DNA from: Octopus vulgaris
Taxonomy: Eukaryota
DNA length: 64,000 bases
Direction of reading: 5' to 3'
NCBI GenBank assembly: GCA_951406725.2
Contig: OX597833.1
Location: 44,268,001 to 44,332,000, forward strand
In this document: piece by piece, positions 22,159-52,332 of the stretch
How positions within the stretch are numbered: position 1 is the first letter of the stretch
Layout of the letters: each line of letters begins with the position of its first letter
Made by a program: the position numbers and the translations under genes
Notes under the pieces: generated by a model
The model's database searches: none
Seen by the model: the letters and a program-made list of their open reading frames with translations, nothing else
What the model was told of the DNA's origin: nothing

Positions 22159-22461
22159 CTTTTGCGATGATTGGTATACTAAATGTTTTGCCGAAAACAA
22201 AACACGAGATCACTGTGACGTCAAGGTCGTCCTTTTTTACAGTGTAATTATAAGTTGACTCTACTAGAACATAACATTTGCCAGCAGTTGAAACATTTAC
22301 ATAAAGTTTATGTTCAGTTTTGCCGCGAAAACTGTTTTCAATCCAAAAAAAGGCATGACGATCAAAAGGTGAACCGACATATGCTCTACATCTGAAGGTC
22401 GATGTCTTGTCAACTGCAAAGGGAGGGTTAAGAAGTTCCAGATCCTTAATGTGAGGTTTTG
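22159..22461 (-). CDS. Ig domain 2 exon of gene copy B
   Basis: 303 nt, phase 1-1, acceptor tttacttttcag, donor gtgagc. Reads AKPHIKDLELLNPPFAVDKTSTFRCRAYVGSPFDRHAFFWIE..GKCY..STYNYTVKKDD..ISCFVFGKT. Confidence 0.85.
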
Positions 22462-22829
22462 CTGAAAAGTAAACAAATTAACATTTGTTAATTTTAGGAT
22501 AATAGATCTTTTAGGAAAATATATTCAGTGGTTTCACTGATATAAACTACAATCTTCATACTCAAACAAAGAGTATAACAACACTCAAACTATCTGTGAA
22601 GCTAAGCCCTTTGAACTCCTGCTTCTAAGTGTTCAACTGTATAACTTTGTTTTTAAAAAACGCTGGTGCTAGAGCCGTGTGGAGCCGTGTCAATAGCAAT
22701 AACCATACAAGCTCATCAATAATACATTATACTTTATAAAAAAATATATATATATTCTTATATATATATATATATATATATATATATATATATATATATA
22801 TATATATATCATATATATCATATATATAT

Positions 22830-23655
22830 ATAGTATAAATATCAATGTCTGTGTGTTCGTGTGTTCATGTGTTACTTATAGACTCGAAAACTACAGTACC
22901 GACCCTAATGAAATTTGGAACACTAAATGCAAAAATAGTGAGAAGGATTATGTTATATGTTTCATACAATTTTGAGGGGGTATAAAGGAGGATGTAGAAC
23001 CCTCACCCCGCCCCGTCAAAATTCATATCCTTCCGATTTTGATGAAATTTGATCCCTAGGTATTAGAAATAAATTTTAAAATATACCCAAAATTGACATT
23101 TCTTTGGATGATTCTAAAACCACATAATGCGGGCTTAACCCCCAAATATCAGTCCTTTTTTATGGACCAAAATTACTGGATGGATCCTTAGGATATGTAG
23201 AACTTAGATTCAATGCATAAGGGCAAGTATAATGCGGTATGTTTGGTTTGAATTTGTGGGGCTTAAAGGGGGCAGAACCTTCCATGAAAATTCATAAATT
23301 TCTCTTGTTGATGACATTTCAACCATAAGTAATTGACACAAATCAAGAAGTATTCCCAAAGTTTCCGCTGCTTATGAAGATTCTAAGACCCCCAAATTTT
23401 AGTCATTTTTTTATGATCCAAAATAAGGTCAAAAGTACTGAATGGATGTTTATGAAATTTGGAAATTATATTCTATGCATAAGGGTAGATATAAAGTTTG
23501 AATGTGAGGGGTATAAATTCATATATTTTTACTGTTGATGAAAATTTAACCATAGATATTAGACACAAATGAATGTATATTCCTAAAATTTCAACTACTT
23601 ACGAGATTAGTAAGACACCTCAATGGGGGATTAACTCCCATAATTTAGTCATGTT
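22830..23655 (+). mobile_element. Non-autonomous Helitron/Helentron-like element with degenerate internal subrepeats
   Basis: GTCTGTGTGTTCGTGTG..AAAACTAC..GAAATTTGG head, with recurrent GATGAAATTT / TTCTAAGACCCC / TTTAGTC units. Paralogue at 49350-50200. Confidence 0.45.
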
Positions 23656-24099
23656 TCCTAAGCTAAAATGTATACAATTGTAGTCTTGGAAACTGTAGAG
23701 TCACCCGGGAATACAAGATGAGCGTTATTTGTAAGAGTTTGCTTTGAGATATACTTAGATTGTGATTTCTGCTGTGTGCATAAATTGTCAAGTAAAGGAG
23801 AGCCAAATTTGCCTCCACTGGTTTCGTTGCAAAGTGTTATTTTGAGCAAAGTTATTTGGTTGTAGACCTCCTTTGCGACTTTTTATTATCACTGGGTCAG
23901 AGACAGTCCCCAAATGGTGTCATTGATTTCAAGGCCTTTCCAGATAAGTGATTGGTCATTCAGAGAGACTTATAGGTTGCAAATTTCTGTTCAGTTACCT
24001 ATAGGCATATTGATTATTGGCAAACTCCAGAGGTGACACTTTCATTTCCCCTTACCTCTCACGTCACACAGTTGTTATTGTTTATTTGAACTGGGTCAC

Positions 24100-24780
24100 G
24101 CCCTTCCAATAAATGATCTCGTCTAGAACAATCAGAGGAGCTGACGACAGATGAACTCCTGCAGCTTCAGGAGCAACAGCATTTGGATGCGGTGGAAGGG
24201 ATTGGTTCCTCGGAGGAACACAGTGTAGCAGGGAATGTTATCACTATTAGTATCATAGATGCAGTGTTGGCAAAGTTGCAGTATTTTTTCTGAATTTGTA
24301 GAAAAATATTATCTTGAAAAAGTAACTGCAGGTCATTCAGCTGCTTTATTCAGTGACACTGCACCGGCGCATTTTCGATATATTTTTGATATATTTCTAA
24401 TGAAACGACCTGCAAGTGTAAAAAGTGAAGAAAATGTGTCCCAAAATGTTAAATTTATCGAAGTGAGACAGAAAATGCCAGAGGTTGTTCTTTATGAAGT
24501 CTTAATGGAAGGAGATTCTCCTCCCCAACAGTATTTCTCCTTCCCTCTCTCTATCGTCTTCCTCACGCATATATCGTCCCATTTTAAAGATAATTCAGCT
24601 AATAAAACCTGTTTACATATTTCTTTTACATTCTCTATTTTATAATTGTCATTTTAATTGGAAGTACACCTTTTCTGTCTTAAAACTCATAAAAAATTGT
24701 TTTTGGACTGTTTGGCTGGCCTGGAACGGATTAATTATATTGCAGTTAATTTCAATGGGGAAAATTGATTTGTAAAATGA
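24100..24780 (+). mobile_element. Tigger/pogo-like DNA transposon 3' relic
   Basis: ELLQLQEQQH, FVEKYYLEK..LFSDTAPAHF, DIFLMKR C-terminal pattern and GGAACGGATTAAT..TTTCAATGGGGAAA subterminal motif. Paralogue at 50680-51400. Confidence 0.55.
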
Positions 24781-49251: not shown

Positions 49252-51486
49252 TATATATATATATATATATATAAAAGTAAATAAATAGAAAGCAATACTC
49301 TCGTATTGCATTACTATTTTATATATATATATCATATCATATATATATATAGTATAAATATCAATGTCTGTGTGTTCGTGTGTTCATGTGTTACTTATAC
49401 ACTCGAAAACTACTGTACCGACCCTAATGAAATTTGGAACACTAAATGCAAGCCTAGTGAGAAGGGTTATGTTATATGTTTCATACAATTTTGAGGGGGT
49501 GTAAAGGAGGAGATAGAACCCCACCCCGCCCCGTCAAAATTCTTATGCTTCCGATTTTTATTAAATTTGACCCCTAGGTATTAGAAATAAATTTTAAAAT
49601 ATACCCAAAATTGACATTTCTTTGGATGATTCTAAAACCACCTAATGCGGGCTTAACCCCCAAATATCAGTCCTTTTTTATGGACCAAAATTACTGGATG
49701 GATCCTTAGGATATTTAGAACTTTGATTCAATGCATAAGGGCAAGTATAATGCGGTATGTTTGGTTTGAATTTGTGAGGCTTAAAGGGGGCAGAACCTTC
49801 CATGAAAATTCATAAATTTCTGTTGTTGATGAAATTTCAACCATAGGCAATTGTCATAAATCAAGAAGTATTCCGAAAGTTACCACTTCTTATGAAGATT
49901 CTAAGACCCCATAATGGGGTTAACTCCCAAATTTTAGTCATTTTTTAATGATCCAAGACAAGGTCAAAAGTACTGAATGGATCTTTATGAAATTTAGAAA
50001 TTATATTCTATAATGTAAAGCAGTATAAGCTTGAAAGTGAGTGGCTATAACCCTCATAAAAATTCATATATTTTTACTGTTGATGAAAATTTAACCATAG
50101 ATATTAGACACAAATGAATGTATATTCCTAAAATTTCAACTACTTAGGAGATTAGTAAGACCCCTTAATGGGGGCTTAACTCCCACAATTTAGTCATTTT
50201 TCCTAAGCTTAAGTGAATACAATTGTAGTTTTGGAAACTGTAGAGTCACCCGGGAATACAAGATGAGCGTTATTTGTAATTCGACGTTACACCAGTGTAA
50301 GAGTTTGCTTTGAGATATACTTAGATTGTGTTTTCTGCAATGTGTGCGTAAATTGTCAAGTAAAGGAGAGGCATCTTTGCCTGCACTGGTTTCGTTGCAA
50401 AGTGTTTTTTTGAGCATAGTTAATTGGTTGTAGACCTCCTTTACGGCTTTTTATTATCACTGAGTCAGAGACAGTCCCCAGATGGTGTCATTGATTTCAA
50501 GGCCTTTCCAGATAAGTGATTGGTCATTCAGAGACACTTATAGGTTGCAAATGTCTGTTCAGTTACCTATCGGCATATTGATTATTGGCAAACTCCAGAG
50601 GTGACACTTTCATTTCCCCTTACCCCTCACGTCACACAGTTGTTATTGTTTATTTGAGTTGGGTCACTCCCTTCCAATAAGTGATCTCGTCTATAACACT
50701 CAGAGGAGCTGACAACAGATGAACTCCTGCAACTTCAGAAGCAACAACATTTGGATGCGGTGGAAGGGATTGGTTCCTCGGAGGAACACAGTCTGGAGGG
50801 AATGTTATCACTACGAGTGTCATAAATGCAGTGTTGGTAAAGTTGCAGTATTTTTTTCTGAATTTGTAGAAAAATATTATCTTGAAAAAGTAACTGCAGG
50901 TCATTCAGCTGCTTTATTCAGTGACACTGCACCGGCGCATTTTCTTGCATTTTGAAAGGCAGTAAAAAGTAGACTTCTTTTGATATATTTCTAATGAAAC
51001 GACCTTCAAGTGTAAAAAGTGAAGAAAGTGTGTCCCGAAATGTTAAATTTATCGAAGTGAGACAGAAAATGCCAGAGGTTGTTCTTTATGAAGTCTTAAT
51101 GGAAGGAGATTCTCCTTCCCAACAGTAATTCTCCTCCCCTCTCTATCGTCTTCCTCACGCATATATCGTCCCATTTTAATAAAGAAATAATATATCGTCC
51201 CATTTTGAAGATATTTCAGCTAATAAAATCTGTTTGCATATTTCTTTTACATTCTCTATTTTATAATTGTCATTTTAATTGGAAGTACACCTTTTCTGTC
51301 TTAAAACTCATAAAAAATTGTTTTTGGATGGTTTGGCGGGCCTGGAACGGATTAATTATATTGCAGTTAATTTCAATGGGGAAAAGTGATTTGTAAAACG
51401 AGTAAATTGCACAACTGTTACTGTACACAATACGTAGATTATTTCTGCAATAGAAAATACAAAACCAGAGTAAATATTGCACATAT

Positions 51487-51900
51487 AGACGTAGGAGTGG
51501 CTCTGTGGTAAGTAGCTTGCTTACCAGCCACATGGTCCCGGGTTCTGTCCCACTGCGTGGCAACTTGGGCGAGTGTCTTCTATTATAGCCTCGGGCCAAC
51601 CAAAGCCTTATGAGTGGATTTGGTAGACGGAAACTGAAAGAAGCCCGTCGTATATATGTATGTATATATATATATATGTGTGTGTGTGTGTTTGTGTGTC
51701 TGTTTGTCCTCCCAACATCGCTTGACAACCGATGCTGGTGTTTTTACGTCCCCGTAACTTAGCGGTTTGGCAAAAGAGATCGATAGAATAAGTACTAGGC
51801 TTCCAAAGAATAAGTCCTGGGGTCGATTTGCTCGACTAAAGGCGGTGCTCCAGCATGGCCACAGTCAAATGACTGAAACAAGTAAAAAGAGTAAAAAAAA
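51487..51900 (+). mobile_element. Octopus-type CORE-like SINE, specific to unit C
   Basis: Same family as 13979-14370. It interrupts sequence that is contiguous in unit B (~24865). Confidence 0.85.
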
Positions 51901-52014
51901 TATAGAGAGCATATGAAATGCTACAAATCTGTTCCCGATAGTGCAGTAGAAACACGCAATAGAGATAAAAGTAATGATATTGGGGCTGAAACAAATAGAA
52001 CTAGTAAAACTCAC

Positions 52015-52332
52015 CTCTCAGAAGTTTAGGTTTTGTAGATTCTAAAGGTGTATTACATTTGTAGAATCCCAAATCCTTGCAGGAGGATGGCAGCTTCATG
52101 CAGCTAATCTCAATTAAATCATCAGTCATTGTACAATTGAAATCTTTCTCCTCGGTTGTTTTCTCAAAGACACCATTCTCCTTGTTGTGTATAAATTTTG
52201 CAATGGTAATTTTCTGATCTTTCATCAGAGAAATCTCAGTAACATTATCTACATCACTCCTACATGTTATAGTTAATAGACTATATAATTCAAAATTAAT
52301 ACCATCAGCAAGGGTTATCTCTATTTCAACAA
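52015..52332 (-). CDS. Ig domain 1 exon of gene copy C
   Basis: 318 nt, phase 1-1, acceptor ttttttcctacacag, donor gtgagt. Contains LTITC and CKDLGFYKC. Confidence 0.85.

Follow-up and report, generated by a model that had tools for sequence, protein, structure and literature searches.

We analysed a 64,000-nucleotide (nt) window of the Octopus vulgaris genome (C20:44268001-44332000) that carries two genes, here called copies B and C, each encoding a protein with two immunoglobulin (Ig) domains and belonging to a clustered family in which the first of these domains was found to be under diversifying selection. All exons of the B and C genes lie on the - strand. Self-comparison of the window revealed long direct copies at approximately 14.5-29.6 kb and 37.6-63.0 kb, together with an older third copy near 9 kb. 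Each of B and C is a five-exon gene, consisting of a signal-peptide exon, one exon for each Ig domain (Ig1 and Ig2), a 39-nt linker exon, and a last exon that encodes a hydrophobic end and the stop codon (hereafter the anchor exon). The initial annotation of this stretch had stated that the conserved Cys residues, the Ig2 Trp, the exon lengths, and the splice sites are kept and that there are no stops, and this was borne out: both reading frames are open at 262 amino acids, exon lengths are equal, and the internal splice sites are all AG/GT. The exons, in window positions, are as follows.

28535..28583, - strand: copy B exon 1, signal-peptide-like (16 amino acids, phase 1)
24964..25281, - strand: copy B Ig1 exon, predicted V-type Ig domain (5 Cys, Leu replacing the usual Trp; model pLDDT 90; T-cell receptor/antibody V match, Z 12.2)
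22159..22461, - strand: copy B Ig2 exon, predicted C-type Ig domain (3 Cys, Trp; model pLDDT 93; SIRP-gamma D2 match, Z 10.2)
19716..19754, - strand: copy B linker exon, 39 nt (the copy C equivalent is joined to Ig2 in read contigs)
16061..16140, - strand: copy B last coding exon, hydrophobic C-terminal signal and stop (putative glycosylphosphatidylinositol [GPI] signal; 11-residue hydropathy peak 2.8)
61684..61732, - strand: copy C signal-peptide exon
52015..52332, - strand: copy C Ig1 exon, bearing 13 of 18 polarised amino-acid changes
47333..47635, - strand: copy C Ig2 exon, joined by splicing to Ig1 and the linker (runs X1 and X9)
46634..46858, - strand: copy C minor cassette exon, 225 nt, in intron 3, with an early stop (X9 contig)
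21432..21684, - strand: copy B equivalent of the cassette exon
42814..42852, - strand: copy C linker exon
39492..39571, - strand: copy C last coding exon (putative GPI signal)

The AlphaFold2 model of Ig1, built from the family alignment, has nine strands including C′ and C″, and its best fold matches are T-cell receptor and antibody V domains (Z 12.2, rmsd 2.2, 95 residues aligned). Among 29 family sequences, C23, D86, and Y90 are invariant and C92 is nearly so, and the B- and F-strand Cys and the D-x-x-x-Y-x-C motif are present; the core Trp of strand C is missing, and a nearly invariant Leu35 occupies its place. The Ig2 model, obtained in the same way, has seven strands and a Cys-Trp-Cys core (C24, W39, and C86, invariant in 35 sequences). 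Its fold matches include SIRP-gamma D2 (Z 10.2), VCAM-1 D2 (Z 9.8), Necl-4 D2 (Z 9.0), and the further adhesion proteins SYG-1/2 and PECAM-1, although these C-type matches are tied with unrelated Ig-like folds, the top match being a bacterial Ig-like domain (Z 10.8). Ig1 is thus predicted to be a V-type domain and Ig2 a C-type domain. There are five conserved Cys in Ig1 and three in Ig2. This leaves an odd Cys in each, which may form a disulfide between the two domains, predicted to link Ig1 C84 with Ig2 C62. The proteins begin with a signal peptide and end in a small-residue site, a short spacer, and a hydrophobic C-terminus with no cytoplasmic tail, and the C-terminus is likely a GPI signal. 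Profile and sequence searches were weak guides to these domains: Pfam V-set matched 1 of 29 family members (E 0.008) and Pfam ig 2 of 29, Pfam found nothing significant in five domains of the window (those of B and C included), a Protein Data Bank sequence search returned weak Ig matches only (best E 0.008 and 0.003), and a single-exon homologue search with copy B Ig2 gave no match. A homodimer prediction for the ectodomain of paralogue E, a neighbouring family member, scored 0.01, which counts neither for nor against.

A recount of the codon differences between B and C reproduced the initial annotation exactly: there are 21 nonsynonymous (N) to 1 synonymous (S) differences in Ig1 (20 amino-acid changes), 19N:3S in Ig2 (17 amino-acid changes), and 0N:3S in the anchor exon (CTA/TTA, GCC/GCT, and GGC/GGT). 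The two exons that it had left out add 2N:0S (signal peptide) and 1N:0S (linker), giving 3N:3S for the non-Ig exons together. Its estimate that about a quarter of neutral changes should be synonymous also stood, the share being 0.236-0.250 under the intron mutation spectrum. The probability of so low a synonymous share by chance was found to be 0.021 for Ig1, 0.17 for Ig2, 0.010 for Ig1 and Ig2 combined, and 0.055 for the whole coding sequence. The ratio of nonsynonymous to synonymous rates (omega) was compared with 1 by using our own MG94 codon likelihood code under three frequency models. Ig1 was significantly above 1 (omega 7.0-7.7, P 0.010-0.015), as were Ig1 and Ig2 combined (3.1-3.2, P 0.012-0.016), whereas Ig2 by itself was not (1.9, P 0.27-0.29), so the per-exon check that had been proposed came out positive for one domain of the two. 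Codons with a single difference gave 18N:0S in Ig1 and 14N:3S in Ig2.

Non-coding divergence between B and C was 5.35% (435 of 8137 sites in 16 aligned blocks). At the intron rate and spectrum, 24.2 N and 7.7 S changes are expected in Ig1 and Ig2 together, whereas 40 and 4 were observed. The comparison with introns that had been suggested places nonsynonymous divergence (8.5%) above the intron value, by a factor of only 1.65. AT mutation bias as the source of the ratio was rejected by the intron-spectrum and frequency-model tests. The differences are not significantly clustered along Ig1 or Ig2 (P 0.13 and 0.22), and a single conversion tract or multi-nucleotide artefact was also rejected. It is unlikely that B and C are uncollapsed alleles, given the 5.35% intron difference, their different insertions, and the several contig identity classes that cover the same interval in one other DNA run. 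From copy B to copy C, one N-glycosylation sequon is lost in the CC′ region and one is gained on strand D.

Contigs of runs X1 and X9, which come from two studies and are not on record as RNA, were compared with window positions 20400-22735. They cover the Ig2 exon only, with copy C letters, and run on into the end of copy C Ig1 and the linker exon. The contig junctions are the modelled junctions, and therefore copy C is transcribed and spliced. The initial annotation had allowed that one copy might be unexpressed and drifting; this does not hold for copy C, and its splicing makes drift as a pseudogene unlikely. A minor form of copy C in X9 contains the cassette exon (depth 81 vs. 2338), with loose ends that match copy C Ig2 and the linker. 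This exon ends translation after 6 residues, and the form may be an anchorless protein or a target of decay. For copy B, a single 237-nt exon-limited contig identical to B was found (X6; depth 4.6, no junction), which is too weak to count as expression.

Replication was sought in other members of the family. Clade S, at C20 43.99-44.20 Mb, comprises 6 intact Ig1 exons and 8 Ig2 exons, the broken L012 Ig1 being excluded. Its Ig1 gave an omega of 5.15 under model M0 (P 3.5e-5), and the site models gave 34.4 for M2a vs. M1a (39% of sites at omega 11) and 34.4 for M8 vs. M8a; the values for Ig2 were an M0 omega of 2.35 (P 0.02) and 29.7 for M2a vs. M1a. A tree-free count, which needs no phylogeny and favours synonymous paths, yielded 66N:8S for Ig1 (P 0.002-0.010) and 38N:8S for Ig2 (not significant). 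The proportion of nonsynonymous differences (pN) in clade S Ig1 was 2.9-16.2%, compared with a mean non-exon divergence of 2.2-5.1%; it was higher in 15 of 15 pairs and above the highest 245-nt non-exon window in 11 of 15, although the pairs are not independent. Therefore, slow synonymous sites do not explain the high ratio in this clade. Pooling Ig1 over the seven recent clades other than B/C gave 204N:40S (P 0.0025 for a neutral share of 0.24 and 0.018 for 0.22).

Site models were also run on the whole family after removal of broken copies, identical duplicates, and gappy columns. In Ig1 (34 distinct sequences), the likelihood-ratio test (LRT) of M2a vs. M1a was 145, with 39% of sites at omega 2.6, and 12 core positions, all five Cys included, were under purifying selection. 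In Ig2 (36 sequences), the site-model LRT was 113 and a selected class was detected. It was found that the anchor exons of clade S have 3N:1S (six exons; a seventh, frameshifted, was excluded). Therefore, the earlier claim that the anchor changes only silently describes B and C, where it concerns three changes, but does not generalise, and we reject it as a rule for the family.

The segments of loop and strand were taken from the predicted secondary structure of Ig1. The BC, C′C″, DE, and FG loops form the membrane-distal end of V domains, and these were used as the distal set. In clade S, 32 of 59 changes fall in the distal loops vs. 18.2 expected, and in L023/L024 the figures are 20 of 41 vs. 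12.4 (P 0.001). The Ig1 sites selected family-wide lie largely in these loops, and on the predicted structure the selected sites of most of the family would be membrane-distal. The B/C changes include the CC′ loop and the F-strand positions 87, 89, and 91, and on the model these may form a side face. A single Ig1 exon at L023 (C20 44.515-44.525 Mb) precedes a pair of Ig2 exons that are nearly identical to each other (5N:0S).

A number of results weigh against diversifying selection as the explanation of these patterns. The B/C tests are post hoc and concern one gene pair, and its exon divergence, 22 per ~310 nt, is within the intron range of 5-34 per 310 nt (20 windows, mean 17.8, overdispersed); because intron divergence is patchy, 22 changes per exon is not in itself unusual. 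Half of the B/C ratio is due to scarce synonymous changes (4 vs. 7.7 expected, P 0.12). With paralogue E as the outgroup, the excess lies on the copy C branch (27N:2S, vs. 9N:1S on the copy B branch), but introns changed more in copy C as well (100 vs. 65 of 2752 sites), and the nonsynonymous rate of copy C is just 1.6-fold its intron rate (P 0.039), that of copy B not being raised. The mapping of the B/C Ig1 changes onto the model, which had been recommended, revealed no clustering in distal loops (3 of 20 vs. 5.7 expected), and enrichment there was present in two of seven clades (S and L023/L024) and absent from the other five. Two of eight Ig1 clades alone reach P<0.05, clade S being the only one of the seven other than B/C, and the four-gene clade L036-L039 (C20 1.03-1.09 Mb) has 0N:1S in Ig1, with no amino-acid change. 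The pooled tree-free count for Ig2 was 168N:45S (P 0.18), and the family-wide mean omega is 1.1-1.4. We implemented the site models ourselves, and they are sensitive to, and can be inflated by, gene conversion and misaligned loops. The mean omega, the intron-like exon divergence, the scarcity of synonymous changes, and the lack of significance of most clades alone favour an account without positive selection, in which duplication was followed by a loosening of constraint (omega near 1) and the ratio was made to look high by chance, by gene conversion, or by constraint on synonymous sites. However, relaxation cannot raise omega above 1, the nonsynonymous rate in clade S is approximately 1.3 to 4 times the flanking non-coding rate, the tree-free count is still significant there, the core residues are conserved, and copy C is spliced. 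We consider this account the least probable of those discussed here, and for clade S it is largely refuted.

Because the changes polarise to copy C, whose introns also changed more, the evidence from the B/C pair by itself is modest and concerns Ig1, chiefly that of copy C. Taken over the pair, the independent clade S, and the family, diversifying selection on Ig1 is supported family-wide: dN/dS is significantly above 1 after correction for codon usage and base composition, and in an expressed copy. The part of the original proposal that concerned Ig2 fared less well, significance being reached in site models only. In L036-L039, the Ig1 proteins are identical, yet the Ig2 exons are up to 16 nonsynonymous changes apart and the flanks differ by 1-4%, which suggests that Ig1 was homogenised by conversion or exon shuffling.

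Exon searches of the genome returned 36 and 39 matches, all but one of them on C20, where the family forms groups near 0.86-1.10, 2.85-2.94, and 43.6-44.73 Mb. At least 42 Ig1 exons, several of them broken, were recovered by profile in the fetched stretches, and there are 6 further Ig1-type places. Broken copies adjoin intact ones in a birth-and-death pattern. The proteins identical to family exons are named "hypothetical" in O. vulgaris, and the relatives, which come from O. sinensis, O. bimaculoides, and Argonauta hians, carry the label "uncharacterized". A profile search of 1.84 billion proteins gave 43 matches (36 at E 1e-10 or better), which were octopod proteins and weak generic Ig matches; at the weakest end, those looked up beyond Argonauta were three fish proteins, one bacterial protein, and one more without a name. 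No squid, cuttlefish, or other mollusc homologue was among the named matches (34 of 43), within which the family appears to be confined to octopods. The O. sinensis proteins P0017 and P0009 are 94-100% identical to O. vulgaris copies, and the O. bimaculoides relatives are approximately 50-83% identical to their best O. vulgaris match. Copy-C-type Ig2 in two other samples differs from copy B at about as many places as copy C does, and the few other samples compared are near-identical in Ig2. Together with the near-identity of O. sinensis, this is what would be expected if the variation were among paralogues and not among alleles.

The public O. vulgaris gene models P0053, P0006, and P0014 fuse adjacent genes of the cluster into long multi-Ig proteins, P0053 joining E, copy C Ig1, copy B Ig1, and part of copy A. 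We found no description of this family in the open-access literature, six locus identifiers matched 0 papers, and the family was not found in the searched supplementary files of PMC9712504 and PMC13230822. The word immunoglobulin is absent from the main text of an account of cephalopod genome expansions (PMC9068888).

Other features accompany B and C in and beside the window. Two exons of copy A, an older paralogue, are located as follows.

8837..9136, - strand: copy A Ig2 exon
3607..3683, - strand: copy A last coding exon (bounds approximate)

Both look intact, but no Ig1 exon was found between copy A and copy B (9140-14600 examined); the O. bimaculoides relative P0063 has all the gene parts. 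Additional copies of the signal-peptide exon lie upstream of C, D, and E (window 60146-60243; L001 and L002), some lacking a GT donor and some inverted. Copy D (L001-L002, C20:44332127-44344325), just past the window, is a 12.3-kb tandem duplicate of window positions 51775-64000 with 98-99% identity, and it has signal-peptide and Ig1 exons but no Ig2. It may be a very recent duplication or an assembly artefact. Copy D was rejected as an outgroup or pseudogene control, its Ig1 being identical to that of copy C except for one extra base. At window 4108-6408 (+), 57834-58736 (+), and 47901-49266 there are, judging by eye, a 766-amino-acid open reading frame that we take to be a Penelope-type reverse transcriptase with a GIY-YIG end and copies of a presumably mariner-like transposase; one transposase copy, so labelled by eye, sits inside copy C intron 2.

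At one end of the array, at C20 43.53-43.64 Mb, there is a transmembrane member with Ig1, Ig2, a transmembrane helix, and an open last exon that contains tyrosines and ends in GSAV; its tail exons were recovered in part. We take the S-A-V end to be a PDZ-type motif. The helix is 77% identical to that of the Argonauta relative, and the Argonauta member scored below 0.9 throughout in the ESM Atlas, matching generic V/C1 Ig clusters and one unnamed mollusc cluster (0.87), which is a lead only. An intronless processed copy of the transmembrane member is present on C1 (L041:6493-7600, C1:165120493 onward), with an open stretch of 303 amino acids and, relative to its parent, a tail disrupted by a frameshift and a stop. 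Its divergence from the parent is greatest in Ig1 (60% amino-acid identity, vs. 76-78% in Ig2).

The layout of the array, one transmembrane member with anchored copies, may be likened to that of mammalian CEACAM genes, in which a transmembrane member (CEACAM1) stands beside GPI-anchored members (CEA and CEACAM6), as described in PMC4057559 and PMC13278318. No sequence-level homology to CEACAM was found, the one partial match, to CEA, covering 23 positions at E 0.012. The octopod proteins also differ in the five conserved Cys of Ig1, and inspection by eye of the tail, for which exons were found in part, showed no canonical immunoreceptor tyrosine-based inhibitory or activation motif (ITIM or ITAM). 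The Hydractinia Alr family (PMC9546547) likewise comprises approximately 40 clustered genes, has unusual V-set domains poorly caught by profiles, assigns a separate exon to each domain, and includes pseudogenes, additional invariant cysteines, and anchorless splice forms. The Alr products span the membrane, carry an Fn3-like spacer, and are highly polymorphic between alleles, whereas the octopod family has mostly GPI-like ends, no Fn3-like domain, and, as far as seen, variation between paralogues. In place of the Alr spacer, transmembrane helix, and tail, B and C have a 13-amino-acid linker and a terminal hydrophobic signal. Because no clear homology to CEACAM was found and the domain layout differs from that of Alr, we class the family as neither. 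SIRP, nectin/Necl, and CD2/CD58-type proteins have the predicted V-then-C topology in common with it, but the matches have 7-22% identity and score no better than unrelated Ig-like folds, which indicates that the fold alone is shared. The FREPs of gastropods and the VCBPs of amphioxus are invertebrate multigene immune families with variable Ig domains, secreted, and with a fibrinogen or chitin-binding domain. Unlike these, the octopod B and C genes have no fibrinogen or chitin-binding exon between Ig2 and the stop.

We therefore propose, as the best reading and with a confidence slightly better than even, that the partner of these proteins is a microbe or parasite and that the family is a receptor and decoy repertoire analogous to CEACAM. 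A gene for a V+C surface protein would have been duplicated whole, and each duplicate would be kept when its outer domain gained a new binding surface and otherwise lost. Microbes or parasites that bind the outer domain would favour new binding surfaces after each duplication. The GPI-anchored copies would act as co-receptors, traps, or shed decoys, a role proposed because anchored copies cannot signal alone, and the transmembrane member beside them, with its tyrosine-bearing tail, would be a signalling or adhesion receptor. Here, we infer the GPI anchor, the receptor/decoy split, and the microbial partner alike; the microbial preference comes from turnover, selection at loop tips, and low difference between samples and from the sister species, and not from binding. 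Counting against the proposal are a tail in which no canonical ITIM or ITAM was visible by eye and the choice of a microbial partner by analogy alone. More tentatively, and with somewhat less than even confidence, some 50 germline V-domain surface receptors that vary in loops resembling complementarity-determining regions, and that signal via one tyrosine-tailed member, could constitute a convergent CEACAM-like innate locus; they would be the first family of variable immune receptors under strong selection in cephalopods.

Some of the same evidence could point to self-recognition or a cell-identity code, in which the copies would bind one another, or a receptor of the host, in trans and selection would favour new specificities, in the style of Hydractinia Alr, Dpr/DIP, or protocadherins. 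This is rather unlikely, although it has points in its favour: the V+C shape resembles adhesion proteins (Necl-4, SYG-1/2, and PECAM-1 among the Ig2 fold matches), the transmembrane member has the presumed PDZ-type end, and the B/C changes in the CC′ loop and at alternate F-strand positions are on what we take to be a nectin/CD2-type face. Neuronal wiring codes are usually conserved between species, whereas the O. bimaculoides relatives here have diverged as far as given above. The Alr genes likewise form one cluster of unusual V-set genes, but their loci have tens to hundreds of alleles (PMC9546547), compared with near-identity in the few cross-sample and cross-species comparisons made here. 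A reproductive role is improbable; in that case the proteins would belong to sperm, spermatophore, oviducal gland, or egg surface and would diversify by sexual conflict or gamete recognition. Among gamete proteins, GPI-anchored and Ig-fold examples with omega >1 are well known, and the selection signal fits, but dozens of tandem paralogues with turnover, and near-identity with a sister species, fit species-specific gamete recognition poorly. If instead the ligands were external and non-microbial (prey, conspecific, or environmental) and bound on skin, suckers, or gut, the variation at loop tips would fit as it does for any external ligand, and other lineage-specific clustered sensory expansions occur in octopus (PMC9068888). 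Nevertheless, Ig proteins held by a GPI anchor contain in themselves neither a channel nor a signalling part, and this reading is very improbable.

The kind of system represented by the receptor and decoy proposal is already known. The octopod family escapes standard annotation, since Pfam is silent on B and C, database names are uninformative, and public models are fused, and cephalopod genome work has so far centred on protocadherin, zinc-finger, and similar expansions. The family seems to be an independent instance, from outside the vertebrates, of V-domain genes that are clustered and evolve fast. It provides defined genes and selected loop positions for expression, infection, and binding work, which bears on disease in octopus aquaculture, and it is relevant to how octopuses recognise non-self.

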